Source: Gammaproteobacteria bacterium (lineage in GTDB: Bacteria > Pseudomonadota > Gammaproteobacteria > UBA4575). From it: a stretch of 64,000 nt of DNA. The notes beneath the pieces are model-generated. The model was not told the DNA's origin, searched no databases, and worked only from the letters and a program-made list of their open reading frames with translations. The translations under genes and the position numbers were made by a program. Shown piece after piece: positions 13,206 through 36,100 of the stretch; within the stretch, counting starts at the first letter, position 1, and each line of letters starts with the position of its first letter. The stretch spans positions 6,208-70,207 of the forward strand of contig JAPOQE010000107.1 in NCBI GenBank assembly GCA_026710875.1. Reading direction: 5' to 3'.

Positions 13206-13892
13206 ATGGTTTCTCGCAAAGGGATTTTTATTACAGGCACAGATACCGACGTTGGCAAAACATATGTCGGAACACAAATCGTCACATTGCTGCATGAAAA
13301 CAGTATCAATGTGGTGCCTCGAAAACCAATTGAATCCGGGTGCATTCGTATCCAGGACGCGCTTGTGCCACAAGATGCGCATCAATACTATGAAGCCACA
13401 AACCGTAAATTCCCGCTCGCAGAGGTGTGTCCTTTTCGTTTCGAGCCAGCGATCTCACCACAACGTGCAGCACGTCTGGCCAATCAACCCGTGTATACCG
13501 AAGAAGCATTTGCAAAATGCGTACAGGGGACAACGCATGAAGATTTCCTGGTCGTCGAAGGTGCGGGGGGATTCTATTCGCCACTGTGCGAAGATGGCAT
13601 GAATTCAGACCTTGCCAAAAGACTGGGCTTGTCCGTTTTGCTGGTTGCGAATGACAAGCTTGGTTGTATCAACCATATCCTGCTAACCATTGAGGCCATT
13701 CGTACCCAAGGGTTGTCTGCATGTGCAGTGATCCTGAACCAAATCGCTGCACATGATACTTCTGAAATGAATAATTTCGATGATGTAGCCGAGCGGCTAA
13801 GAGTACCGGTTTTCACGATTTCCCATCAGGAAGTACTGCAAAATACCACTGAGAAGGCACGCTCAATTCTCCTGGCAGTAAGGGGCCATTAA
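13206..13892 (+). CDS. bioD: ATP-dependent dethiobiotin synthetase
   Basis: 228 aa; GTDTDVGKT P-loop, EGAGG, CINH; starts 13 bp after the purC stop. Confidence 0.8.
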   Translation: MVSRKGIFITGTDTDVGKTYVGTQIVTLLHENSINVVPRKPIESGCIRIQDALVPQDAHQYYEATNRKFPLAEVCPFRFEPAISPQRAARLANQPVYTEEAFAKCVQGTTHEDFLVVEGAGGFYSPLCEDGMNSDLAKRLGLSVLLVANDKLGCINHILLTIEAIRTQGLSACAVILNQIAAHDTSEMNNFDDVAERLRVPVFTISHQEVLQNTTEKARSILLAVRGH

Positions 13893-13944
13893 AACCGGAC
13901 CCAGACCGTTCCTGAGGGCCCACACCTTGTGGACCCTTCCAGAA

Positions 13945-15252
13945 CTACATGTTGTATCCGGCTTCCTCGTGTTGGGTAATGTCCAAACCTTCCGTTTCCT
14001 GTTGGTCATCAACACGCAGTCCTACAATCACCTTCACGACCTGCAAGATCACAAAAGTGGCAATGGTAGTCCATATCAGCACTGCAAGGATGCCCTGAAG
14101 CTGGACCCACACCTGCTGGCCCATGGTGACACCTTCAGCCAGGCCGGCTCCTCCAAATTGCTCGGCAACCAGAATACCGCAGAGGAACGTACCTAGAATT
14201 CCCCCAATACCGTGTACCGGGAATACATCCAGTGAGTCATCGATCTGCAGAACGCGTTTAATGTAGTTTGTCGCAGCAAAGCAGACCAGGCCTGCAACAG
14301 CACCAATGACAAGTGCTCCCAGAGGCCCTACAAATCCCGACGCCGGGGTGATGCTCCCAAGCCCAGCCACCATTCCTGTAACTATTCCAAGAACACTTGG
14401 CTTGCCATAGCGGATCCACTCGGCAAACATCCAGACGAGTGATGCGGTAGCAGCACTGAGATGCGTGACCAGCATGGCCATTCCTGCATCCTGATTAGCA
14501 GCGACTGCACTTCCTGCATTGAAGCCAAACCATCCGACCCACAGCATCCCGGCACCAGTCACCGACATGGTCAAATTATGAGGCGGCATCGCGGTCCTCG
14601 GGAAACCCTTTCTTTTACCAAGCACCATGGCAGCAACGATTGCACCCGTTCCAGCAGTCAGATGGACAACCAGCCCGCCTGCAAAATCCAGTACACCTTT
14701 CTCGCCTAGCCAGCCGCCACCCCAAACCCAGTGACAGACCGGAAGATAGACAAGCAGCAACCACAGTGCAGAAAACCACAGCATGGAAGAAAACTTCATA
14801 CGCTCTGCAAAACCACCGACAACCAGTGCGGGCGTAATGATGGCAAAGGTCAACTGAAACATGATAAATACTGTTTCCGGGATGGTTCCACTCATCGAGT
14901 CTCGAGTTACGCCCGACAAAAATGTATTGGACAGACCGCCTATCCAGTTGTTTAGGGTACCTCCATCACTGAAAGCAAGACTGTAACCAAATACCAACCA
15001 TAAAAGGGAAATCAGGCAAGTGATCGAAAAACACTGCATCAACACTGACAAAACATTCTTGCTGCGCACCAGGCCTGCGTAGAACAGTGACAATCCGGGA
15101 ATTGTCATGAACAGCACCAATGCAGTGGAGGTCAGGATCCACGCGGTATCACCTGTATCCAGAGCTGACTCAGCCCATACGGCAGATGGGAGCAGATAGA
15201 CCAACATGGTAGCAAGGCAGAAGCTTCTACAGCTTTTATGTATTACTTTCAT
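13945..15252 (-). CDS. amtB: ammonium transporter
   Basis: Start trimmed to MKVIHK: AGGAAA lies 8 nt upstream and this avoids overlapping glnK. Amt family TM blocks; signal-like N-terminus. Confidence 0.9.
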   Translation of the reverse strand: MKVIHKSCRSFCLATMLVYLLPSAVWAESALDTGDTAWILTSTALVLFMTIPGLSLFYAGLVRSKNVLSVLMQCFSITCLISLLWLVFGYSLAFSDGGTLNNWIGGLSNTFLSGVTRDSMSGTIPETVFIMFQLTFAIITPALVVGGFAERMKFSSMLWFSALWLLLVYLPVCHWVWGGGWLGEKGVLDFAGGLVVHLTAGTGAIVAAMVLGKRKGFPRTAMPPHNLTMSVTGAGMLWVGWFGFNAGSAVAANQDAGMAMLVTHLSAATASLVWMFAEWIRYGKPSVLGIVTGMVAGLGSITPASGFVGPLGALVIGAVAGLVCFAATNYIKRVLQIDDSLDVFPVHGIGGILGTFLCGILVAEQFGGAGLAEGVTMGQQVWVQLQGILAVLIWTTIATFVILQVVKVIVGLRVDDQQETEGLDITQHEEAGYNM

Positions 15253-15271
15253 TTGTATTTCCTGGTATTTC

Positions 15272-15622
<351 letters not shown>

Positions 15623-15787: not shown

Positions 15788-16813
15788 TTAAGCCGCCTGG
15801 CTTTCCATGGCATCCGTGTACTTGCCAAGTGCCGCCGATCCGTTGCATTTAGCACGCCAGAGCAATGCTTGCTGGGCTTTTTGTACATTGGCATTATCAC
15901 CATTCCATACTTGCATTGCCGTTTGCTGCAAGGCACGTCCGTAGGAAAATGTTAAGGCCCAAGGCCGTGAGAGTCCCGACAAATTTATTGCGTTAAGGTG
16001 CTGACTTGCTTCCTGGTCCGTTTGTCCGCCTGACAAAAAGGCTATACCAGGTACTGCTGCAGGCACAGTGTTCAGCAAGCAGCGTACAGTTTGCTCTGCA
16101 ACGGTTTCCACATCTGCACGGGACTTGGCAGACGCCCCGGAAATTACCATGCTGGGCTTGAGAATCATGCCTTCAAGCGCTACCCCCTGGTTTTTGAGCT
16201 GGTAGAAGACAACTCTCTGAGTGAGTTCTGTAACTTCATAGCAGCGCTCAATCGAGTGATCACCATCCATAAGCACTTCAGGTTCTACAATGGGGACAAG
16301 TCCTGCCTCCTGGCTTATGCGTGCATAGCGCGCCAGCGCATGGGCATTAGCCTCTATACATGCCCAGCTGGAAATGCCCTTTCCTATTGTTATCACTGCA
16401 CGCCATTTGGAAAATCGAGCACCCAGTTCAAAATACTCGGTACACCGCTCTTGCAGTCCATCCAGTCCATGAGTCACTTTTTCTTCCTCATGGCCCGCCA
16501 GGGGTTTGGCTCCTGCATCTACCTTGATTCCTGGGATGATGCCTTTATTGGCCAAGTGGTCGGCAAACGGTGTCCCATCCAATGTCTTTTGACGGATGGT
16601 TTCATCAAACAGAATGGCACCGCTGACGTAGTCAGACAGACCATCCGCTGTAACCAGCATGTCCCGGTATTCTTGGCGCATGGTCTCCGTGGTAGGGATT
16701 CCTAGCTTCTCAAAGCGTTTGTTGCAGGTAGGATGACTCTCATCCATGGCAAGAATCCCGCGCCCTGGCGCGACCATGGCGCATGCAACCTTGTTAAGCT
16801 CTTCGTTATTCAT
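15788..16813 (-). CDS. fba: fructose-bisphosphate aldolase, class I
   Basis: 341 aa; GILAMDES, IIPGIKVD and Schiff-base Lys region LEGMILKPSMV typical of class I (eukaryote-like) aldolase. Confidence 0.85.
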   Translation of the reverse strand: MNNEELNKVACAMVAPGRGILAMDESHPTCNKRFEKLGIPTTETMRQEYRDMLVTADGLSDYVSGAILFDETIRQKTLDGTPFADHLANKGIIPGIKVDAGAKPLAGHEEEKVTHGLDGLQERCTEYFELGARFSKWRAVITIGKGISSWACIEANAHALARYARISQEAGLVPIVEPEVLMDGDHSIERCYEVTELTQRVVFYQLKNQGVALEGMILKPSMVISGASAKSRADVETVAEQTVRCLLNTVPAAVPGIAFLSGGQTDQEASQHLNAINLSGLSRPWALTFSYGRALQQTAMQVWNGDNANVQKAQQALLWRAKCNGSAALGKYTDAMESQAA

Positions 16814-16888
16814 ACAGTTTCTCCTGATACGGGTCGCAAATTTCTAAATCTAGCCGGCAATTTCGTATGTATTTCAGCCTGCAGACAT

Positions 16889-18367
16889 TCATTCCGGTTC
16901 TATCAAGTGCCCTACGCGAACAATTTTCAATGCATTCGTGCCGCCGTCAACTCCGATCAGATCACCTTTGGTAATGATCACCAGATCATTCTCCTGTACG
17001 ACACGGCATCGAAGCAGCACATCAATTGCATTTTTATTCACTTCGGCGTGAGAGCGGCTGAGAATTTCCATGGGAGCTGGATAGACGCCCTTGTATAAGG
17101 TCACCCTGCGCAGGGTTTTTTCATGTTGCGTCAGTGCATAGATCGGAATTGCAGAACTGATTCTGGACATCCACAGTGCGGTGGATCCTGATTCAGTCAG
17201 TGCGGCAATGGCTGCCACGTTCAAATGGTTTGCCGTGTACATTGCCGACATTGCAATGGCTTCATCGACTCTCCCAAATCTTGAGTACATACGGTGGTCA
17301 GATACCGCATTCAGGACTCTTCGCTCCGAGGCCAGGCAGGTACGGTGCATCGCCTTCACGGCTTGTACCGGGAATCTCCCAACTGCAGTTTCACCCGAAA
17401 GCATCACTGCATCTGTTCCATCCAGGACGGCATTGGCAACGTCCGATACTTCCGCACGGGTAGGAATCGGGCTATGGGTCATGGATTCCATCATCTGCGT
17501 TGCTGTAATGGCAATACGATTCTTGTCGTGTGCCCTGTCGATCAGCAGCTTCTGAACACCCGGCACTTCAGCATCACCGATCTCAACACCGAGGTCTCCT
17601 CGACCAATCATGATCGCGTCACACTCATCCAGGATTTCATCGATCGTATCCAGAGCTTCAATCCGCTCGACTTTCGCAATGATCCCGCCGCTACCACCTG
17701 CTTTCATGAACAACTCTCTGGCCTGTCTGACATCATCTGCAGAGCGAGGAAATGAAACGGCCAGATAGTCAATGTCCAGCTTCACCGCATCAAGAATATC
17801 CTGTTGATCCTTATCCGTCAGAGCTGCTACTGCCAGCCCGCCTCCTTTGCGATTTACCCCCTTGCTACTGTGAAGCTCTCCCCCCATGACAACTTCATTA
17901 TGTATCTTACCCTCTGCAACTTGCGTAACCTTGAGCACGATCCTTCCATCATCGATAAGCAGGATGTCACCAACACTTACATCATCCGCCAAATTCGCAT
18001 AAGTTGTTCCGACGACCTTCTCATTACCTTGACCCAAGGGTAAGCTCGCATCGATACAAAATGCCTCTCCAGCATCCAGCTGGACCTTTTTATCCTTGAA
18101 TGCCCCGATTCTGATTTTCGCGCCCTGCAGGTCCCCGAGAACACCCACTTCATGATGTTTTTCCTTGCTCAACTTGCGCAAGGTTTTTATACGCCACGAA
18201 TTTTCCTCGTAGGTGCTATGTGAGAAATTAAGACGCACAAGATCAATGCCGACATCGATCAGATCGGCCATGATTTGCTCACTGTCTGTGGCCGGCCCAA
18301 GCGTTGCAATTATTTTGGTATGCCGGAAATTGGCTTTCCTGTCACGGACTCCTGTATTCGACTCCAT
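16889..18367 (-). CDS. pyk: pyruvate kinase
   Basis: Start trimmed to MESNTG; TKIIATLGPA, MIGRGDLGVEI, MLSGETA motifs. Confidence 0.85.
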   Translation of the reverse strand: MESNTGVRDRKANFRHTKIIATLGPATDSEQIMADLIDVGIDLVRLNFSHSTYEENSWRIKTLRKLSKEKHHEVGVLGDLQGAKIRIGAFKDKKVQLDAGEAFCIDASLPLGQGNEKVVGTTYANLADDVSVGDILLIDDGRIVLKVTQVAEGKIHNEVVMGGELHSSKGVNRKGGGLAVAALTDKDQQDILDAVKLDIDYLAVSFPRSADDVRQARELFMKAGGSGGIIAKVERIEALDTIDEILDECDAIMIGRGDLGVEIGDAEVPGVQKLLIDRAHDKNRIAITATQMMESMTHSPIPTRAEVSDVANAVLDGTDAVMLSGETAVGRFPVQAVKAMHRTCLASERRVLNAVSDHRMYSRFGRVDEAIAMSAMYTANHLNVAAIAALTESGSTALWMSRISSAIPIYALTQHEKTLRRVTLYKGVYPAPMEILSRSHAEVNKNAIDVLLRCRVVQENDLVIITKGDLIGVDGGTNALKIVRVGHLIEPE

Positions 18368-18447
18368 GTCAGATCCCGGAATTGGGGTGCGCGGCTGAAG
18401 GCTGTGTAAATGGATTGCCTGAATCAACCTGATTATTGCTGGTCATT

Positions 18448-19620
18448 CTATGCACTGGCTCTTTGTTCTAAAATTTCAACGGCAGGCAGTACTTTTCCTT
18501 CCAAGTACTCGAGAAAAGCGCCGCCACCAGTGGAGATATATGAAATTTGGTGTCCCAGATCAAACAGGTCGATAGCAGCCAGCGTATCACCACCCCCTGC
18601 AATTGAGAATGCCTGGCTCTCGGCAACAGCTCTCGCGATAATCTCCGTACCCCGTGAAAAGCCTTCAATCTCGAACACGCCCACTGGGCCATTCCATATG
18701 ATTGTACCCGCATCATACAGATAGGAGGCCAGTCTTTTTGATGAGTCCGGACCAAAGTCGAGAATCATGTCATCCGCACTGACCGCATCCACCCGCTTCG
18801 TAGTAGCCGTGGCAACTTCAGAAACCTCGGTCGAGCAGACAACATCCCTTGGTAGTGGAATCTCCATATTTCTGCGACTCCCTTCCTCTAGCAGGTCCTT
18901 AGCAATTCCCACCTGGTCTTTCTCATACAGGGAGTTTCCTATCGGTTTGCCAGCAGCCGCCAGAAAAGTGTTGGCAATCCCACCGCCTACTATCAACTGG
19001 TCAACTTTGTTCAGCAACGATTTCAGTATTTTTAGCTTCGTCGAAACTTTGGCGCCCCCTACAATCCCTACCAACGGCCTATCCGGCATGGCCAAGGACT
19101 TGTCCAGTGCATGCAACTCCCTCTCCAGCAACGGTCCGGCACAAGCGACAGGAGCATGCTTTGCAACACCGTGGGTTGAAGCCTGGGCACGGTGGGCAGT
19201 CCCGAACGCATCCATCACGTAGATATCACACAAGCTTGCAATTTTTTTTGCAAGCTGATCATCATTTTGAAGTTCACCAACTTGAAAACGCACATTCTCG
19301 CACAGGATGACCTGACCTGTTCCAGCATCGACGCCATTCAGCCAGTCTCTTTCAAAATGTACGTCAAAGCCGCAGTGTTCTTGCAGATACTCTGCAACGG
19401 GCGAAAGTGAGAGTGCCTCATCGTACTGCCCTTCGACAGGGCGTCCTCTATGGGAAAGCACAATGACCTTGGCATTCTGCTCCATTGCCAAACGCAGTGT
19501 GGGCAGGGCCGCCTCTATCCGCTTGGCACTGGTTATCCGACCATCCTTTACAGGGACATTCAGGTCCTCACGGATCAGCACACGACGACCCGCGAGATCA
19601 AGATCAGACATGCTTAACAC
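18448..19620 (-). CDS. pgk: phosphoglycerate kinase
   Basis: 390 aa; [19 protein letters not shown] motifs. Confidence 0.9.
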
Positions 19621-19678
19621 GGGCTATGTCCGGTGGTGAAGCTGTGCACTGCTGAATTGCGGCAGCCGGGCAGATCTG

Positions 19679-20683
19679 TCACTTGGCGTTCATCAATGCA
19701 AGTGTCGTATCCAGCATACGGTTGGAAAATCCCCATTCATTGTCATACCAGGAACAGACCTTCACATTGCGACCGCCCATGACCTTGGTCAGGGATGCAT
19801 CGAAGTTGGAGGAATGAGCGTCGTGGTTAAAGTCCACCGATACCAGGGGTGCATCCACATACTCCAGCACGTGCCCATCCGCCGCATCCTTCATTATAGA
19901 ATTGACTTCTTCAACGCTCGTGTCACGGGCTGCCATGAACGTCAGATCGACCAGTGAGACATTGACAGTGGGGACACGAATGGCAAAACCGTCAAGCTTG
20001 CCATTCAGTTCCGGGAGCACCAGTCCTACTGCAGAGGCAGCTCCGGTTTGAGTGGGAATCATCGACATGGTTGCCGAGCGAGCACGCCGTAAATCGGTGT
20101 GGTAGACATCTGTCAGCACCTGATCATTCGTATAGGCATGCACCGTAGTCATCACCCCATTTACCACGCCAATTTTCTCATGCAATGGTTTCACCATCGG
20201 TGCCAGACAGTTGGTAGTGCATGAAGCATTTGAAATGACCGTGTCTTTTGCACTCAACACGTCGTGATTGACACCGTATACAACCGTGGCATCAACGTCC
20301 TGACCTCCCGGTGCAGAAATTATGACTTTTTTCGCTCCCGCGGTTAAATGTCCAGAAGCCTTCTCCTTGCTGGCGAAAAATCCCGTGCTCTCATGCACGA
20401 CATCAACGCCCAGCTCTGCCCATGGAAGTTGACTCGGATCACGCTCTGCGTATACCCGGATACGATCTCCGTTAATGATCATGTATTCCCCATCCACATC
20501 GACAGTGCCATTAAATCTTCCATGTGCCGTGTCAAAACGGGTCAGGTGAGCATTGGTATCTGCATCCCCCAAGTCATTGATTGCAACCACTTGAATTTCT
20601 GTATTGCGTCCCGACTCGTACAAGGCACGCATGATATTCCTGCCTATTCGGCCATACCCATTAATTGCAAGTTTTATAGTCAT
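19679..20683 (-). CDS. gap: glyceraldehyde-3-phosphate dehydrogenase, type I
   Basis: Start trimmed to [15 protein letters not shown] (NAD-binding); active site [12 protein letters not shown]. Confidence 0.9.
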
Positions 20684-20717
20684 TACTTTCTCCGTACTTC
20701 CTTCTAAAACAAAGCCT

Positions 20718-22718
20718 CTATCCGTCAAGCATTCCTAAAGCGTGCTCGACAATATGATCACTTGTAAATCCAAAATGCTGCATTACAGCCTGACCAGGTG
20801 CAGATGCCCCGAAAGTGGAAATTCCGATTGTATCTCCGTCGAATCCCACGTATTTCAGCCAGTAATCCGGAACCCCCGCCTCAATTGCCAGGCGCATGCG
20901 GACAGAATCCGGCAAGACAGATTCCTTGTATGCGTCACCCTGGGCATCAAATACATCTGTACTTGGCATGGAAACAAGACGCACCTTCCTGCCCTGATTA
21001 TTCAGGGCTTCTGCAGCCTGCAGCGCGATTCCCAGCTCTGACCCGGTAGCAATCAGAATGAGTTCTGGAGTTGTCGCACAATCCAGTACTATGTAGCCTC
21101 CCCTGGCAATTTGGGCTACCTGTTCTGCATTTCGCTGTATGAAAGGCAGGTTCTGGCGTGAAAATACCAGGCTGGTCGGTCCGCTAACCCGTTCGATCGC
21201 ATGTTTCCACGCAACCGCCGTTTCAACCGTATCGGCTGGACGCCACACAGACATGTTCGGGATATATCGCAGCGTTGCAAGCTGTTCTACCGCCTGGTGA
21301 GTCGGGCCATCTTCCCCCAGCCCTATCGAATCGTGGGTATACACAAAAATGTTTCTCTGGCGCATCAAGGCAGCCATACGAAGCGCGTTGCGCGCATATT
21401 CGGAAAATACCAGGAAGGTCGCGCTGTACGGGATAAAGCCGCCATGCAGGGCAATGCCTGTATTGATCGCTGACATCCCGAACTCTCGAACACCAAAATA
21501 AATATAGTTTGCAGATGCATGCGTTGCACTTACGGCCACCGACCCGGACCACCAGGTATTGTTGGAGCCAGTCAAGTCCGCCGACCCGCCAATCATCTCC
21601 GGAAGAACATTCGCATACCCTTCCAGTGCAAGCTCCGAGGCCTTGCGCGTGGCAACGGTTTTGCCATCCTCCACCGCTTTCCTGATCACTTGCGTTGATT
21701 CCACGTCCCAGTTCGACGGCAAGTCACCCTGAATTCTTCTGGATAATTCAGCCGCGAGCTGCGGATATTGCTGCTGGTATTGCTTGAATTTATCTTTCCA
21801 CGCCAATTGCTGGTCATTCCCTTTTCCCGTCGCATCCCAGCACCCGTAGACTGATTCCGGGATATGGAAAGGCTCATGCTCCCAGCCAATGGCTGCGCGC
21901 ACCTGTTCAATCTCCTGCTCGCCCAACGGCGCACCGTGTGTGGCTGCCGTGCCCTGCTTGTTTGGCGACCCCCAACCAATCACTGTCTTACAACAAATCA
22001 GAGTCGGGCGTGTGAGTGCGCTTCTTGCGTTTTCAATGGCATTCTTCACCTGCACGGCATCGTGGCCATCGACGTCAGCGATTACATGCCATCCATAAGA
22101 CTGAAATCGCTTCGGTGTGTCATCAGTAAACCAGCCCTCGACTTCGCCATCGATGGATATTCCATTGTCATCGTAAAAGACAATCAGCTTGCCAAGACCA
22201 AGGGTTCCTGCAAGAGAGCACACTTCGTGCGATATGCCTTCCATCAGGCAGCCATCCCCAGTAAATACATAGGTGTAGTGGTCTACAATCTCCAGATCTT
22301 CTTGATTGAATGTCGCTGCCAGAATCTTTTCTGCAAGTGCCATTCCAACGGCATTTGCAAGGCCCTGTCCGAGCGGACCGGTCGTTGTTTCCACACCCGG
22401 GGTATCGCCGTACTCCGGATGACCGGGCGTTCTGGAATGCAGCTGTCGGAAGTTCCTGAGTTCTTCCATGGAAACGTCATAGCCTGTCAGGTGCAACAGT
22501 GAATACAGCAACATGGAACCATGTCCATTGGACAAGACAAAGCGGTCGCGATCCGGCCATGTGGGATCTTTCGGATTGTGCTTCAGATAGTCATTCCACA
22601 GTACTTCTGCGATATCGGCCATGCCCATTGGCATCCCAGGATGACCTGAATTCGCATGCTGCACGGCATCCATGCTGAGTGCACGGATCGAGTTTGCAAG
22701 TTCCTGACGATTTCCCAT
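20718..22718 (-). CDS. tkt: transketolase
   Basis: 666 aa; [24 protein letters not shown] thiamine-PP motif region. Confidence 0.95.
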
Positions 22719-22769: not shown

Positions 22770-22804
22770 ACTCAAATAGAAAGGGTCCTGCTTGCACAGG
22801 ACCC
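22770..22804 (-). terminator. rho-independent terminator downstream of the GPP34-P450 gene
   Basis: Perfect inverted repeat GGGTCCTG-cttgca-CAGGACCC at 22783-22804; on the minus strand it is followed by TTTCTATTT. Confidence 0.6.
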
Positions 22805-23015: not shown

Positions 23016-25025
23016 CTACGCTGTCGCAGCAACTTCGATGGGGTGTCTATACCGTACAACCCGAAACCCGAACTTCTTGCTTGGGCTGAGTTTTGGCAAT
23101 GGATTGATCTTCAGTTTGTAATTAGCAGGGTCCATTTCCAATTCGAGGTGACGGGCAATCAAGAGCAGATTGACAGCCATTTGCAGCTCGGTCCAGCGGG
23201 ATCCTCCGCACATATGCGTCCCGACGCCGAATGGCGCATAAATACCGCTGGCCTGTTTGTGTTCGTTCCGGGGCGGTGTGTACCTATCAATATCAAAAGC
23301 GTCTGGATCCTTGAAATGCTGTTCATCATAATGAACTGATGAAAAGGCCACCAGAACGGTACTGTAGGCTGGTATTTCCATACCCTCGACCTCAAATGCG
23401 TTCATCGCAGTGCGCAGGTGTATCGGTACTACCGGATACCGCCGCAGTGTTTCCATGACAAACCGGCGGGTTACGTCTATGGCGTGCGGGCTGAGATCTG
23501 CCCCAACCGGGTCTCCATCTGCAAATAGTGCATCAGCCTCAGCAGCAATCCGATCCCGCAGATCGGGGTGCATCAACAGCTCATAGATTGCAAAAGCCAT
23601 TGCACTTCCCAGGTAGTGCCCAGCAATTATCGGGGCAATAAATGCGAACCCCATATCGGTTTCCGGCAGGAACTGGGGGTCTGACTGGTGGAGCGCCATC
23701 AGGTCGTCTACCAGGTCCCGCCGCTTGCCCTCCCGTTGCGCGGGCGTATGTGTCGCATGGATTTGGGTATAGAGCTCAAGAACACGCGCATGCGCTCGCT
23801 TCATGGCCGGCGTACGCAGTGTAAACTTCGGTAACATGCGGTATAGATGAACCAGCAGCGCCCGGTATTCAAATTTGATGAGGTCGTCAAGGATATCAGT
23901 AGGTTCGATACTGACGCTGAGCTGTGCGACCTGCTCGCCAATCATTCGCTGGCAAGCATCTTCGCCGGATACTGTCTTCCCGATACCCCATTTGGCGAAC
24001 GCACGCCTGCCAAGATCCAGCACTTCATTCAGCCGATCCTCAACCACTGCACGGGAGTTGCCTGCCTGCACCGCTTTACGCATTCGAAAGTGATCTGCCC
24101 CGTCCAGGCTGGCTATGGACCGTGCGGTTCCCCACTCCTGCTGAAAGTCCTCGAGATAATCCCGAGTGCGCAGATAAAGTCTTCCCTTGTGTCCCACCCA
24201 ACGATTCAACTCCGCACTCGCGAACACGATCATCTCGCGGCCAGGGGCATTGATCTGGAAAATTGGCCCCAACTCCTTGCTTTTCTCCGCTATGAACTTG
24301 GGAATATTACCGGACCGGAAGGTTCGCGAGGCAAGCATGCCAAAAGGTCCGATGACTGGAATCGAGGGCCGCTGCACAGAGCGTATAGCTGAAGGCGGAC
24401 GATAGGAACTGAGTACGGCGGCCCCAATGGTCCGTCCGATTAAATCCATTCCACTGAAGAGCTTGATTCGATCCTCGGCAAGCTCGTATTCCTCTGGCTC
24501 GAGCATTGCACGAATTCCGCCACAGCTATTCATGAGGCCAATAATCGCAAAATCGCGCGGATCCGGAATTTCATCATCAAGCAGTGCACGCATGATTCTG
24601 CTCTTGACCTCTTCTCCAATCTTGCCATCCACAGTGGGGTATCGCCTCGAACGGGCAACCTTCCCCGACAAGGACCAGAATCCCCCGGAGTCCGCATTGA
24701 GCACACCGATTTTGACCAGCCGGTCAAGCGCCATCTCACTGATTTCATCTGAGCGCCGCGCGATGCGCTCCACCCAGTATTGAGGAGAATGTACTCGGGT
24801 ATCCGTCACAATCTCTTCCAGCACAGGGTCCAGGAGCTCATCACCGGTGGGTGTTGGATCGAGCAAGGTAAGCGTTTGCAGGTCCGAGTCGATGCGGTTC
24901 TCCAGGGAGAGGTCGATCAGAACACCACCTGCAAGCACACAGGACAAACTCCACTCGGGAATAGGGATGAAATAGCCCGTCTCCTCATTCAGCAACAACA
25001 AGAGTATTTCTTCAGCAAATCGCAT
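23016..25025 (-). CDS. GPP34/GOLPH3-like domain fused to cytochrome P450
   Basis: 669 aa. N-terminal ~215 aa: L.AEE.LLLLL.EE.G start and DP.PTGDE.LD block typical of GPP34. C-terminal ~440 aa: ExxR (ETLRR), PERF-like FDIDRY, heme-thiolate loop FGVGTHMCGG. Confidence 0.8.
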   Translation of the reverse strand: MRFAEEILLLLLNEETGYFIPIPEWSLSCVLAGGVLIDLSLENRIDSDLQTLTLLDPTPTGDELLDPVLEEIVTDTRVHSPQYWVERIARRSDEISEMALDRLVKIGVLNADSGGFWSLSGKVARSRRYPTVDGKIGEEVKSRIMRALLDDEIPDPRDFAIIGLMNSCGGIRAMLEPEEYELAEDRIKLFSGMDLIGRTIGAAVLSSYRPPSAIRSVQRPSIPVIGPFGMLASRTFRSGNIPKFIAEKSKELGPIFQINAPGREMIVFASAELNRWVGHKGRLYLRTRDYLEDFQQEWGTARSIASLDGADHFRMRKAVQAGNSRAVVEDRLNEVLDLGRRAFAKWGIGKTVSGEDACQRMIGEQVAQLSVSIEPTDILDDLIKFEYRALLVHLYRMLPKFTLRTPAMKRAHARVLELYTQIHATHTPAQREGKRRDLVDDLMALHQSDPQFLPETDMGFAFIAPIIAGHYLGSAMAFAIYELLMHPDLRDRIAAEADALFADGDPVGADLSPHAIDVTRRFVMETLRRYPVVPIHLRTAMNAFEVEGMEIPAYSTVLVAFSSVHYDEQHFKDPDAFDIDRYTPPRNEHKQASGIYAPFGVGTHMCGGSRWTELQMAVNLLLIARHLELEMDPANYKLKINPLPKLSPSKKFGFRVVRYRHPIEVAATA

Positions 25026-26224: not shown

Positions 26225-26493
26225 GATACCATATCCATGGTACCAAAAGGCACAGTTCCATAGCAGCGCTATGCAGATTTATTGTAGCGAGTCAGCTAGT
26301 GGGTTACTAATACTCAATCCATTCCGGATGCATCAAAACTTGTCCAAGACTTCGTAGGGCTTCAGAAACTTCCGGGGCCTGTCGTGCAGACCCCGGAGTC
26401 GTGCAAGGACAGGTGATGCCATGAACCTACAGCACCAGACTCAGAGCAAAAGGTCTCACGGTATTGCGCGAGCAGCCTCTAGCTTGAAGTTAT

Positions 26494-32920: not shown

Positions 32921-33478
32921 CTATTCTTTCCACTTGATGTTGCACCCCACACTGGGCGTCTGGTCGGGGTCAATCTCTTGGCCTGCAAGCAAAGCATCCA
33001 GAGCTCCTCGAAGGTCTGCGCCGGTCACAGGAATGTCATTTCCAGGCCTCGAGCCGTCCAGCTGCCCCCGGTATACACACTGCAGTGCCTGGTCAAAGAT
33101 ATAAAAATCAGGCGTGCAGGCTGCGTCATACAGCCTTGCAACCTGCTGGGTCTCGTCGTACAGGTAGGGAAAAGTGTACCCAAGGGACTTGGCAAGCGCC
33201 TTCATGTTTTCCGGTGAATCCTCGGGATATTCGACCGCATCGTTGGAGCTGACAGCAATCAGCGAAACCCCTTGGGAAGGGTACTCCTGGCCCAGCCTGA
33301 CCAGCTCGTCCTGGATATGCTTTACAAAGGGGCAATGGTTGCATATGAACATGACAACGGTCGCGATCTCTCCGCGCACGTCCGACAGCCACACTTCTTT
33401 CCCGGAAACCGTATCTGGCAGGCAAAAATCCGGAGCTGACGTACCCAAGGGCATCATGTTGGAGGGTGTCAGTGCCAT
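32921..33478 (-). CDS. thioredoxin-fold redoxin (AhpC/TSA-TlpA-like thiol:disulfide oxidoreductase)
   Basis: 185 aa; APDFCLPD and redox-active CNHC in a thioredoxin-fold context; no obvious signal peptide. Confidence 0.65.
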   Translation of the reverse strand: MALTPSNMMPLGTSAPDFCLPDTVSGKEVWLSDVRGEIATVVMFICNHCPFVKHIQDELVRLGQEYPSQGVSLIAVSSNDAVEYPEDSPENMKALAKSLGYTFPYLYDETQQVARLYDAACTPDFYIFDQALQCVYRGQLDGSRPGNDIPVTGADLRGALDALLAGQEIDPDQTPSVGCNIKWKE

Positions 33479-33581: not shown

Positions 33582-34754
33582 ATGCCTGCAATGCGTGCTT
33601 TCACCTCCGAGTCTGTTTCCGAAGGACACCCGGATAAAATGGCAGATCAGATTTCTGATGCAGTGCTTGATGCTTTACTGGAGCAAGACCCTGACGCGCG
33701 CGTGGCGTGTGAAACACTTGTGAAAACAGGCATGGTCCTGCTGGCCGGGGAGATTACTACCGCTGCTTACGTGGATCTTGACGCTCTCGTGCGGCGTACC
33801 GTCAATGAGATCGGCTATGACCACTCCCGGATCGGCTTTGATGGAAATACCTGTGCAGTCATCAATGCATTGGGTAAACAGTCGCCGGATATCGCTCGCG
33901 GGGTTGACCGCAAGAACAAGGAGGATCAGGGTGCAGGAGACCAGGGCATGATGTTCGGTTATGCCTGCGATGAAACCGATGTACTCATGCCAGCGCCAAT
34001 CACCTATGCACACCGTTTGGTGCGAAAACAGTCCATGGTCAGGAGAGAAGGCAAACTGCCCTGGCTGCGCCCGGATGCCAAAAGTCAAGTGACCTTCGTG
34101 TATAAGGATGGAGGCCCCAGCCACATTGATGCCGTAGTCCTCTCCACCCAGCATGACCCGGATGTCACCCAAGATGAACTGCATGAAGCGGTAAGGGAAT
34201 TGATCATCAAACCGGTACTGCCGGGAAAGTGGCTGACGTCTGACACGAAAGTCCACATCAACCCCACGGGTCGTTTCGAGACGGGAGGCCCCGTGGGAGA
34301 TTGCGGACTGACCGGACGAAAAATCATCGTGGACACTTACGGTGGCATGGCCCGTCATGGCGGAGGCGCCTTTTCCGGAAAGGATCCTTCCAAAGTCGAC
34401 CGCTCTGCTGCGTATGCGGGGCGTTACGTCGCCAAGAACGTAGTGGCTGCCGGGCTGGCAAAATGCTGTGAAATTCAGATCTCCTATGCCATTGGCCTGG
34501 CCCAGCCGACCTCAATCTCGGTCAACACCTTCGGCACCGGGACCCTGTCCGATGACAAAATTGAAGCCATTGTGTGCGACATGTTTGACCTGTCACCGTA
34601 CGGAATTCTGTCCATGCTGGACCTGCTTCATCCGATCTACCAGGCGACGGCCGCCTATGGGCATTTCGGTCGCAACGAGGACAGCTTTCGCTGGGAACGC
34701 ACGGACAAGGTCGGTGAGCTGAAGGAGCGGGCCGGACTTGGTGCGATGGTATAA
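33582..34754 (+). CDS. metK: S-adenosylmethionine synthetase
   Basis: 390 aa; [31 protein letters not shown] motifs. Confidence 0.95.
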
Positions 34755-36100
34755 TGCCGAAAACCGACAGGATGCCTGAAAAGATCATGAGTATTCAATC
34801 TGCGCAGGACGTGGAGCCTGACTTCAAGGTTGCTGACCTGGCACTTGCTGACTGGGGACGCAAGGAAATTGCCATCGCCGAAACCGAAATGCCGGGCCTG
34901 ATGGCCTTGCGTGAAAAATACGGAAATGAAAAACCACTGGCAGGTGCACGTATTGCCGGCTGTCTGCACATGACCATACAGACTGCGGTACTGATTGAAA
35001 CTTTAACAACGCTGGGTGCACAGGTGCGCTGGTCATCGTGCAACATATTTTCTACACAGGATCACGCGGCAGCCGCCATCGCCGCCACGGGTGTGCCTGT
35101 ATTTGCCTGGAAAGGTGAAACTGAACAGGACTATATGTGGTGTATCGAACAGACGATCAATGGGCCTGGAGGCTGGCAGCCGAACATGCTTCTTGATGAT
35201 GGCGGTGACCTGACCAAGGTCATGCACGAAAATTTTTCGAAAATACTGGGTAAAGTACGTGGCCTGTCCGAAGAAACCACGACCGGCGTGCACCGCCTGA
35301 TGGAAATGGAAAAAAGGGGTGAATTGAAAGTCCCTGCATTTAATGTGAACGATTCTGTCACCAAATCCAAGTTTGACAACCTGTATGGTTGCCGTGAATC
35401 ACTGGTCGACGGTATCAAGCGTGCAACGGACGTCATGATCGCGGCTAAAACCGTCGTTGTATTTGGCTTTGGAGATGTGGGCAAGGGCAGTGCACAGTCC
35501 TTGCGCAGCCTGGGTGCGAATGTCCTGATCACAGAAATCGATCCTATCTGCGCATTGCAAGCCGCGATGGCAGGTTTTCGGGTGGTCACCCTGGATGAGG
35601 TTGTCTCAACGGCAGACATCTTTGTCACTGCCACCGGCAACTATCATGTGATCAGTCATGACCATATGCGAGCCATGAAAAATCAGGCCATCGTCTGCAA
35701 TATCGGACATTTCGACAATGAAATTGATGTGGAGAGCCTCAAGCAGTATCCCTGGGAAAATATCAAGCCCCAGGTCGATCACGTCATCTTCCCAGATGGA
35801 AAACGCATCATACTTCTGGCAGAAGGCCGCCTTGTAAACCTGGGATGTGCCACTGGGCACCCGAGCTTCGTCATGTCAAATTCATTCACGAATCAAGTGC
35901 TTGCACAAATTGAATTGTGGGGAAACCCAGGCCGCTATAAAAACCGCGTGCATGTACTGCCCAAGTCACTGGACGAGGAAGTTGCCCGGCTGCACCTGGA
36001 AAAAATCGGCGCCAAACTGACCCAGCTTACTGGCGAGCAGGCGGAGTATATTGGAGTCGACGTGAAAGGGCCCTACAAACCCGATTACTATCGGTATTGA
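34754..36100 (+). CDS. ahcY: adenosylhomocysteinase
   Basis: 448 aa; KVADL.LA.WGR, NAD-binding [11 protein letters not shown] overlaps the metK TAA (TAATG). Confidence 0.9.

Follow-up and report, generated by a model that had tools for sequence, protein, structure and literature searches.

Proteins in which a GPP34 domain is joined to a cytochrome P450 have been described as the 'GPP34_L' family, which comprises 656 proteins, is stated to be exclusive to sponge symbionts of many phyla and reaches a prevalence of up to ~90% of symbiont genomes in several of them (PMC11706023, Microbiome 2025;13:4). The same study lists rare GPP34–Rieske and GPP34–ABC fusions, reports that the GPP34 family is enriched in sponge and coral symbionts and transcribed in Aplysina aerophoba, and proposes that secreted GPP34 effectors bind host phosphatidylinositol 4-phosphate (PI4P) and block phagosome maturation (PMC11706023). 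Efflux, sterols, pocket residues, AlphaFold and signal peptides go unmentioned in its main text, and Rieske proteins appear there only as a rare fusion partner. A further paper on this architecture was not found in the searchable literature. The subject of the present analysis is a GPP34–P450 fusion gene in a 64,000-nucleotide stretch, called the window below (contig JAPOQE010000107.1 of assembly GCA_026710875.1, positions 6,208 to 70,207, from a gammaproteobacterium of the UBA4575 lineage). The fusion gene lies in a recurrent cassette with a Rieske oxygenase gene and the genes of a resistance–nodulation–division (RND) efflux pump, its P450 domain belongs to a family close to CYP51 and its GPP34 domain is acidic and has lost most of the PI4P pocket of GOLPH3.

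In self-sufficient P450 fusions, such as CYP102 P450BM3, CYP116B and the CYP51–ferredoxin protein, a redox domain that holds FMN/FAD or an Fe–S cluster forms the C-terminal part. As in these self-sufficient enzymes, the P450 of the window is permanently joined to an accessory domain; unlike in them, this domain stands at the N terminus and, having no known cofactor, cannot supply electrons. Sterol-biosynthesis clusters of sponge symbionts are a second described system, with an ERG11/CYP51 ~31% identical to the yeast enzyme, SdmA 44–47% identical to MCA1016, SdmB, oxidosqualene cyclase and the C14 reductase ERG24 (PMC10070321). Sterol methyltransferases (SMTs) of sponge symbionts methylate sterol side chains in vitro, the tested enzymes coming from such clusters, with real CYP51 and SdmAB (PMC10070321). 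The loci considered here resemble the clusters of Brown et al. 2023 in their sponge habitat, partly in the very metagenomes sampled, and in the presence of SMT-family genes beside a P450 and a Rieske gene. In contrast to those clusters, the cassette has an RND pump and none of true CYP51, SdmA, SdmB, oxidosqualene cyclase or C14 reductase, and is therefore not a cluster for de novo biosynthesis. Among the contig names compared, no match was found between the SMTs assayed in that study and those beside the fusion.

The fusion gene is one unbroken frame of 669 codons and a stop, beginning MRFAEEILLLLL, with the Shine–Dalgarno-like sequence AGGA 8–11 nt 5′ of its ATG. The Pfam GPP34 profile PF05719 matches residues 4–190 (E 1.5e-33; 117 bits against a cut-off of 29.1; profile positions 2–182 of 201), and the p450 profile PF00067 the rest of the protein (E 5.7e-38; 131 bits against a cut-off of 22.8). 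The original prediction, which had read this reading frame as GPP34 and P450 in one protein, is borne out in this respect: the motifs it quoted (DPTPTGDELLDPVLEEI, ETLRR, FDIDRY and FGVGTHMCGG) are all present, and the junction, for which it had named a frameshift or stop as the possible flaw, is intact, lying in a single frame and recurring with the same architecture in more than 240 homologue clusters. Its remark that no P450 with a GPP34 domain had been described is outdated. With GPP34 followed by P450 in one polypeptide, the same size and a metagenome-assembled genome (MAG) of a sponge-associated bacterium as its source, the protein is a further member of the known GPP34_L family. The published account of that family gives the architecture, the distribution and a speculative effector model; no earlier report of the Rieske/RND/SMT cassette, the CYP51 affinity, the pocket loss or the acidity was found in the searchable literature.

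A word-indexed search of 5.8 billion proteins, clustered at 90% identity, yielded at least 120 homologue clusters with 64–94% identity to the window protein and lengths of ~668 aa, all with both Pfam domains. At least 120 further two-domain clusters, found at ≥69% identity, belong to another subfamily, type B, whose identity to the window protein (itself type A) is 46%. When representatives at the 50% identity level were searched exhaustively with HMMER, they gave 441 proteins with E ≤ 1e-30, ~60 of which are full-length fusions with 30–51% identity. The fusion is present in 53 species-representative genomes, many of them single-chromosome MAG assemblies, and in an alignment of 121 sequences the GPP34 half, the P450 half and the linker (SSYRPP, P223) are all strongly conserved. 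The hinge in the linker, SSYRPP...RPSIPVIGPFG, has a net charge of +4, and residues 212–218 have low predicted local distance difference test (pLDDT) values in the AlphaFold2 (AF2) model. By analogy with eukaryotic microsomal P450s, the linker would occupy the position of the hinge after the membrane anchor, and the GPP34 domain that of the N-terminal anchor itself. Further architectures also occur, namely a tandem GPP34–GPP34–P450 protein (P0245, 872 aa) and a GPP34–GPP34 protein lacking P450 (P0296, 444 aa). In some Acidobacteriota and other genomes, two fusion copies flank a gene for an LkcE-like FAD amine oxidase (Table 1).

The best genome match, 98% identical, is on a 1.87-Mb gammaproteobacterial MAG chromosome (OZ243969.1), and a 99% identical fusion is found on the Sarcotragus foetidus metagenome contig LXNI01003625.1. 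A profile built from 10 sequences was run against 241 million metagenome records; the best 80 matches carry either sponge-metagenome prefixes or prefixes without a verified source, and none is assignable to a non-sponge source. The verified sponge prefixes are LXNI (S. foetidus), LXNJ (Petrosia ficiformis) and MKWU, JGIcombinedJ30088 and Ga0209021 (Aplysina aerophoba). The published restriction to sponges is thus reproduced.

The GPP34 domain is securely homologous to GOLPH3, as judged by profile alignment (hhalign, residues 62–274 of GOLPH3, probability 97.4%, E 1.5e-11). It shares with GOLPH3 and Vps74 (PDB 3KN1, 2ZIH) the helical fold, a tryptophan equivalent to W81, the PTGD..LLD motif and a putative hairpin region in the same position. 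Differently from these proteins, it lacks an insertion of ~12 residues before R171, is acidic with the pocket arginines replaced, is fused to an enzyme and belongs to bacteria without a Golgi. The PI4P pocket of GOLPH3, which we take to be formed by W81, R90, R171 and R174 (human numbering, checked against 9QPQ), was compared across 287 full-length fusion homologues. W81 corresponds to W25, which is kept in types A and B and in many distant subfamilies is replaced, often by Arg. R90 corresponds to A32 (Ala in almost all of the fusions), R171 to D93 (Asp or Glu across the fusions) and R174 to S96 (Ser or Asn in type A, Val in type B), so that three of the four pocket residues are replaced in essentially all 287 proteins. 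The net charge, counted as a sum over the whole domain and not as a surface map, is −16 in the window protein, with medians of −17 in type A and −16 in type B, compared with +2 for the GOLPH3 core.

An aromatic and basic loop, GGFW.LS.KV.R.RRYP, is conserved at the position of the membrane-inserting β-hairpin of GOLPH3; the window copy, GGFWSLSGKVARSRRYP, comprises residues 113–130 and is modelled by AF2 as a helix with low confidence (pLDDT 48–55). The model of the whole fusion has a pLDDT of 78 and a predicted TM-score of 0.66, and residues 3–11 form helix 1 of the GPP34 fold in it. Neither a Sec-type signal peptide nor a transmembrane helix was found in the fusion protein by a sequence check, whose reach does not extend to type III, IV or VI signals. 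Judged from the sequences, the pocket loss and the acidity lend support neither to a PI4P sensor nor to direct attachment to anionic membranes. The original prediction had treated the domain as a phosphoinositide-binding module delivering the P450 to a membrane or lipid, with a possibly conserved basic pocket; with W81 alone retained and the domain acidic, that proposal is left unsupported in the form given. Its weaker idea, of GPP34 as an accessory partner of lipid-acting oxygenases, is compatible with the conserved neighbourhood. Stand-alone GPP34 genes, 44–53% identical to the N-terminal domain, are very numerous in the same sponge metagenomes (loci L099–L135). Around the 39 loci of those closest to this domain, no recurrent neighbour and no linked P450 were found; the genes seen there encode a thiolase, an aminotransferase, an ABC ATPase, an FAD oxidase and a STAND NTPase. 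A recurrent P450 beside stand-alone GPP34 has been reported for two Actinobacteriota clades (PMC11706023) and is not seen in the loci compared here.

The P450 domain has the expected attributes of its superfamily, namely the hidden Markov model match, the ExxR motif and the Cys-ligand loop FxxGxxxCxG. Cys606 and ExxR are invariant in the 121-homologue alignment, and Cys606 is kept in 286 of 287 full-length homologues. The AF2 model superimposes on solved P450s with TM-scores of 0.77–0.80 (Foldseek); this search of the PDB was not discriminating, CYP102, CYP184, CYP51 and CYP46 being about equal. In a single-sequence search the closest solved proteins are CYP51s, aligned over residues ~395–637 only (E 1e-25). 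A profile of 40 diverse fusions finds the Methylococcus capsulatus CYP51 as its best match over the whole P450 domain (E 9e-73), about 10 orders of magnitude ahead of the best non-CYP51 protein, with human, mycobacterial, protozoan and fungal CYP51s next. On these comparisons, the P450 family is CYP51-proximal, with type A as a derived branch that is not itself CYP51. The nearest solved relative, the M. capsulatus CYP51–ferredoxin fusion (6MCW/7JJ1), is similar in the Cys-loop, the PERF region and the 'AGH' start of the I-helix; it differs in the continuation of this helix (AGHHTSS, compared with AGHYLGS in the window) and in its ferredoxin, which is C-terminal, whereas the domain fused here is N-terminal and cofactor-free. 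The window P450 has neither the ≥40% identity nor the I-helix signature (AGHHTSS/GQHTS) of CYP51. In the region of the B′-helix and B′–C loop, where CYP51 has YxxF/LxxPxFGxxVxF/YD, the type-A profile aligns with CYP51 without significance.

The neighbouring oxygenase is KshA-type by its domains and motifs. It carries a Rieske domain (PF00355, E 2.8e-16) and a KshA_C domain (PF19298, E 4.1e-24), with the cluster motif CPH...CPFH and the iron motif ENAVDMAHLRYVH intact. Its closest solved structures are those of KshA (4qdc/2zyl, E 6e-24), the phmmer match spanning residues 15–180 only. It thus resembles the 3-ketosteroid 9α-hydroxylase KshA/KshB in the Rieske CxH...CxxH motif, the iron motif and the KshA_C domain, and differs from that system in that neither a KshB-type reductase nor other steroid-catabolic genes are linked to the cassette. 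The Rieske gene is probably co-transcribed with the fusion gene; terminator-like hairpins, one 3′ of the fusion and one just after the RND permease gene, enclose the pair. This oxygenase family, too, is found across phyla, with at least 120 clusters at ≥64% identity. No GPP34–Rieske fusions were found among the 120 best Rieske homologues.

The neighbourhoods of 135 loci were compared by tblastn, counting genes within 10 kb of the fusion. At long type-A loci (≥15 kb, with a fusion ≥60% identical to the P450 of the window; n = 42), an orthologue of the RND permease occurs in 40, with 64–88% identity and including Acidobacteriota, and a Rieske/KshA_C gene in 31. The periplasmic adaptor of the membrane fusion protein (MFP) type is found in 26 of the 42, the outer-membrane factor in 25, the LkcE-like FAD amine oxidase in 11 and an SMT-family gene in eight. 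Loci with a P450 42–59% identical to that of the window, including type B, show the same linkage (Rieske 7/9, amine oxidase 6/9, RND 5/9, SMT 4/9), the type-B loci sharing it being L045, L054, L075 and L085. The proteins of Acidobacteriota MAGs are 64% (fusion), 74% (RND permease) and ~58% (Rieske) identical to those of the window. Since the proteins are unusually similar across phyla, we read this pattern of sequence identity as horizontal spread of the cassette. In the related gammaproteobacterial chromosome OZ242278.1, all that is left of the fusion is a C-terminal piece of a type-B P450, 204 aa long (L049:10016-10630 (+)), with the Rieske gene and the RND operon intact on either side, which looks like gene decay.

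Eighteen fusion loci have an SMT-family gene no more than 10 kb from the fusion; none of the 39 stand-alone GPP34 loci has one at this distance. The family match is to Sterol_MT_C (E 9e-25), with Region I, GW..S.HF, conserved. Two SMT subtypes, ~40% identical to one another, occur near the fusions; both keep G-W...S-H-F and Sterol_MT_C. Canonical Region I, [YF]EYGWGxSFHF, is found in four loci (for example L003:19026-20051 (+)) and a divergent form, xxGW[NG]ESLHF, in 14 (for example L054:13635-14696 (+)). The alphaproteobacterial locus L054 combines the RND pump, the fusion, the SMT gene, the Rieske/KshA_C gene, the amine oxidase gene and a squalene/oxidosqualene-cyclase fragment in one place. 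This fragment, a 163-aa cyclase C terminus, lies together with an ACR_tran fragment of ~200 aa between the type-B fusion and the SMT gene in a Rhodospirillaceae MAG; the fragments at L054 and L055 have the look of pseudogenes, left over from a cyclase and a second pump.

Taken together, the fusion may be a soluble cytoplasmic GPP34_L protein of a gammaproteobacterial sponge symbiont that works in a module oxidising and exporting a sterol-type lipid, where GPP34 would have no catalytic role and would serve as an accessory or docking domain; this is the reading we favour, with a confidence that stops just short of even. A steroid theme is suggested because the Rieske protein is nearest to KshA and carries KshA_C, the family profile of the P450 is nearest to CYP51 and SMT-family genes are linked. 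The proposal of an accessory role follows from the missing cofactor and the loss of the PI4P pocket. According to this scheme, the fusion and the KshA-like oxygenase would form a two-gene unit beside a dedicated tripartite RND pump, and the resulting five-gene cassette would have spread horizontally among unrelated sponge-symbiont phyla, accompanied in many genomes by an SMT-family gene and an LkcE-like FAD oxidase. Both oxygenases would modify a hydrophobic polycyclic lipid, most probably a sterol or steroid derived from the host or holobiont, and the pump would carry the product or the substrate out through both membranes. GPP34 would be no phosphoinositide sensor; it would either present the substrate to the P450 or tether that enzyme to a partner, be it the RND pump, the Rieske protein or a membrane interface. 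A more specific version, in which the fusion, the Rieske protein, the RND pump and the SMT-family enzyme (in about one third of loci) constitute one horizontally shared cassette with which unrelated sponge symbionts remodel host sterols and export the products, with GPP34 again as a docking or accessory domain of the P450, is possible and is offered as a rather doubtful conjecture.

Several observations weigh against a sterol-directed module. The whole P450 domain is only 21–22% identical to CYP51, compared with the 40% of the nomenclature convention, and the type-A profile aligns with CYP51 over the C-terminal half only, so that the substrate-recognition half of type A is not CYP51-like. The Rieske protein fails the NCBIfam SdmA equivalog (32.8 bits against a cut-off of 600, Rieske domain only). 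With these values, true CYP51 and SdmA were rejected as identities for the two oxygenases. No SMT gene is present in the window, and only ~20–45% of loci have one. Oxidosqualene cyclase, SdmB and other sterol-pathway or steroid-catabolic genes were not found linked to the cassette, and no ferredoxin or reductase partner is conserved near the fusion in the compared loci. The FAD enzyme found with the cassette is closer to the polyketide amine oxidase LkcE than to any sterol enzyme. AcrB-type pumps are generalists, and fusion subfamilies <42% identical mostly lack the cassette neighbours. The docking role of GPP34 is drawn by analogy only, and its acidity makes direct contact with anionic bacterial membranes less likely.

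A more general function is an alternative, in which the P450 and the Rieske enzyme hydroxylate toxic secondary metabolites of the sponge or of co-symbionts, such as terpenoids, brominated alkaloids and polyketides, for removal by the RND pump, in the manner of phases I and III of xenobiotic metabolism and with no special link to sterols. The pump is indeed of the RND type for hydrophobes and amphiphiles (RND_permease_2, MdtB/AcrB-like), horizontal spread across phyla inside one chemically rich habitat fits a resistance cassette, and the LkcE-like amine oxidase, an MBL-fold hydrolase and the peroxiredoxin-type neighbours resemble accessories of detoxification; the lack of a significant CYP51 alignment for the N-terminal half of the type-A P450 domain fits as well. 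However, conservation of 64–88% across phyla points to one defined substrate and not to broad specificity, steroids are indicated by the KshA_C domain and by a family profile close to CYP51, and the repeated linkage of SMT-family genes, whose known substrates are sterol side chains (PMC10070321), is hard to account for. We therefore regard general xenobiotic defence as unlikely, while giving it serious weight.

The I-helix of the P450 suggests another alternative. The canonical acid–alcohol pair, (A/G)Gx(D/E)T, is absent from the window P450; in type A the helix reads AGHY[T/L]GS, with Tyr at the acid position and Thr (55%) or Leu (41%) at the alcohol position, and in type B it reads VASIYLGS. 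Distant fusion subfamilies keep the canonical AGxDT, so types A and B are without the pair that supports O2 activation. Loss of the pair appears stepwise, from AGxDT in the distant subfamilies through AGHY[T/L]GS with a one-residue deletion in type A to VASIYLGS in type B. Types A and B might thus act without O2 activation or redox partners, either by rearranging or reducing hydroperoxides or endoperoxides of lipids or sterols, as do CYP74, CYP8A and CYP5A, or as an H2O2 peroxygenase. No redox-partner gene is conserved in the cassette, which is in line with such chemistry, and an AhpC/TSA protein, a member of an AhpD-related selenoprotein family and an AhpC-like protein of 297 aa stand beside the module in three unrelated lineages (Table 1). 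On the other hand, Thr is kept in 55% of type-A proteins, the Cys-loop is without the CYP74-type insertion, peroxiredoxins may simply remove reactive oxygen released by uncoupled oxygenases, and bacterial redox partners are often encoded elsewhere in the genome. A peroxide-transforming P450 is accordingly judged improbable.

The published view makes sponge-symbiont GPP34 proteins, the long form among them, secreted effectors that stop the phagosome from maturing by binding its host PI4P and so allow the bacterium to persist inside sponge cells; it would leave the P450 as an unexplained add-on. The homology to GOLPH3 and the enrichment and transcription of the family in symbionts (PMC11706023), together with the sponge restriction reproduced above, are in its favour. 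It is nevertheless very improbable for the fusion: three of the four pocket positions hold other residues, in one case an acidic one, the domain carries a strong negative charge where the GOLPH3 core is slightly basic, and neither a Sec-type signal peptide nor a transmembrane segment is seen. Moreover, the domain is fused to a heme–thiolate enzyme, of a class that normally needs cytoplasmic redox partners, and the probable co-transcription with the Rieske gene and the RND linkage make a metabolic and not an effector context; the study behind this view was made without a look at pocket residues, structure or secretion signals (PMC11706023). That a stand-alone GPP34 gene and an adjacent P450 gene were joined by a sequencing or assembly error is practically excluded, although stand-alone genes of this kind do occur in the same metagenomes, because the identical in-frame junction and the conserved linker recur in hundreds of independent assemblies from several phyla, single-chromosome MAG assemblies among them.

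GPP34_L is among the most prevalent symbiont-specific genes in sponges, and the sole printed proposal for it is the secreted PI4P-binding effector. The pocket loss, the acidity, the cassette and the CYP51-near P450 give reasons to doubt this proposal and provide a testable alternative. If the module does act on sterols, a hallmark symbiosis gene would be tied to host lipid chemistry, and the first functional context for any bacterial GPP34 domain would be given. In that case symbionts could make or edit some of the unusual sponge sterols, and hence of the 'sponge' sterane biomarkers, which would bear on the debate over whether these biomarkers come from the animal or from its bacteria.

Table 1. 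Positions of the fusion gene, its parts and the associated features; positions without a locus number refer to the window.
Feature	Position	Strand	Evidence or remarks
GPP34–cytochrome P450 fusion gene, subfamily 'type A' of 'GPP34_L'	23016..25025	-	Open reading frame; Pfam GPP34 and p450; >240 two-domain homologue clusters
GPP34 domain, residues 4–190, acidic, all-helical	24456..25016	-	Pfam, hhalign, AF2 model, charge count
Linker, residues 191–235	24321..24455	-	Final GPP34 helices, then basic Pro-rich hinge
P450 domain, residues 236–669	23019..24320	-	ExxR (ETLRR), FDIDRY, Cys-loop FGVGTHMCGG
Heme Cys606 codon	23208-23210	-	Cys-loop FGVGTHMCGG
I-helix AGHYLGS	23604-23624	-	Without acid–alcohol pair
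KshA-like Rieske non-heme-iron oxygenase, 357 aa	25092..26165	-	Pfam Rieske and KshA_C; 66 bp upstream of the fusion
RND efflux permease, AcrB family, 1072 aa	26494..29712	-	ACR_tran E 3e-155 (Pfam); RND_permease_2 (NCBIfam)
RND periplasmic adaptor (MFP), 406 aa	29718..30938	-	Domain matches, comparison of loci
Outer-membrane efflux channel, NodT/OEP family, 569 aa	30945..32654	-	Domain matches, comparison of loci
Terminator-like hairpin, 9-bp stem, 6 GC pairs, T-rich tail	22783..22804	-	3′ of the fusion, ahead of the transketolase gene; consensus match only
Terminator-like hairpin	26455..26472	-	Just after the RND permease gene; consensus match only
AhpC/TSA	32921-33478	-	Peroxide-related thiol protein
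AhpD-related alkylhydroperoxidase-related (seleno)protein	L024:8004-8735	-	NF041238, E 1.6e-84; divergent from the Rieske gene; also in 5 further gammaproteobacterial loci
AhpC-TSA-like protein, 297 aa	L025:845-1738	+	Immediately 5′ of the Rieske gene; also in ~9 further loci, mostly Acidobacteriota
Cyclase and ACR_tran fragments	L054:12065-13249; L055:5038-6183	-; -	
Paired fusion copies	L047:10001-12007 and 13420-15444	+ and -	Also L075, L076

The three peroxide-related thiol proteins that adjoin the cassette in three lineages are different from one another. An FNR/4Fe–4S gene at Porisulfidus-type loci was considered as a redox partner and rejected, since it adjoins a molybdopterin oxidoreductase gene and reflects lineage-specific synteny. 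A promoter scan gave nothing between the genes, and no tRNAs were found in the window. The cassette is bordered by a block with tkt–gap–pgk and adjoining ORFs (15788-22718 (-)) and a metK–ahcY block (33582-36100 (+)). The same housekeeping flanks are found only in the close relatives L001, L002, L004, L040, L046 and L049, and the cassette is consistent with an acquired island in the lineage of the window.

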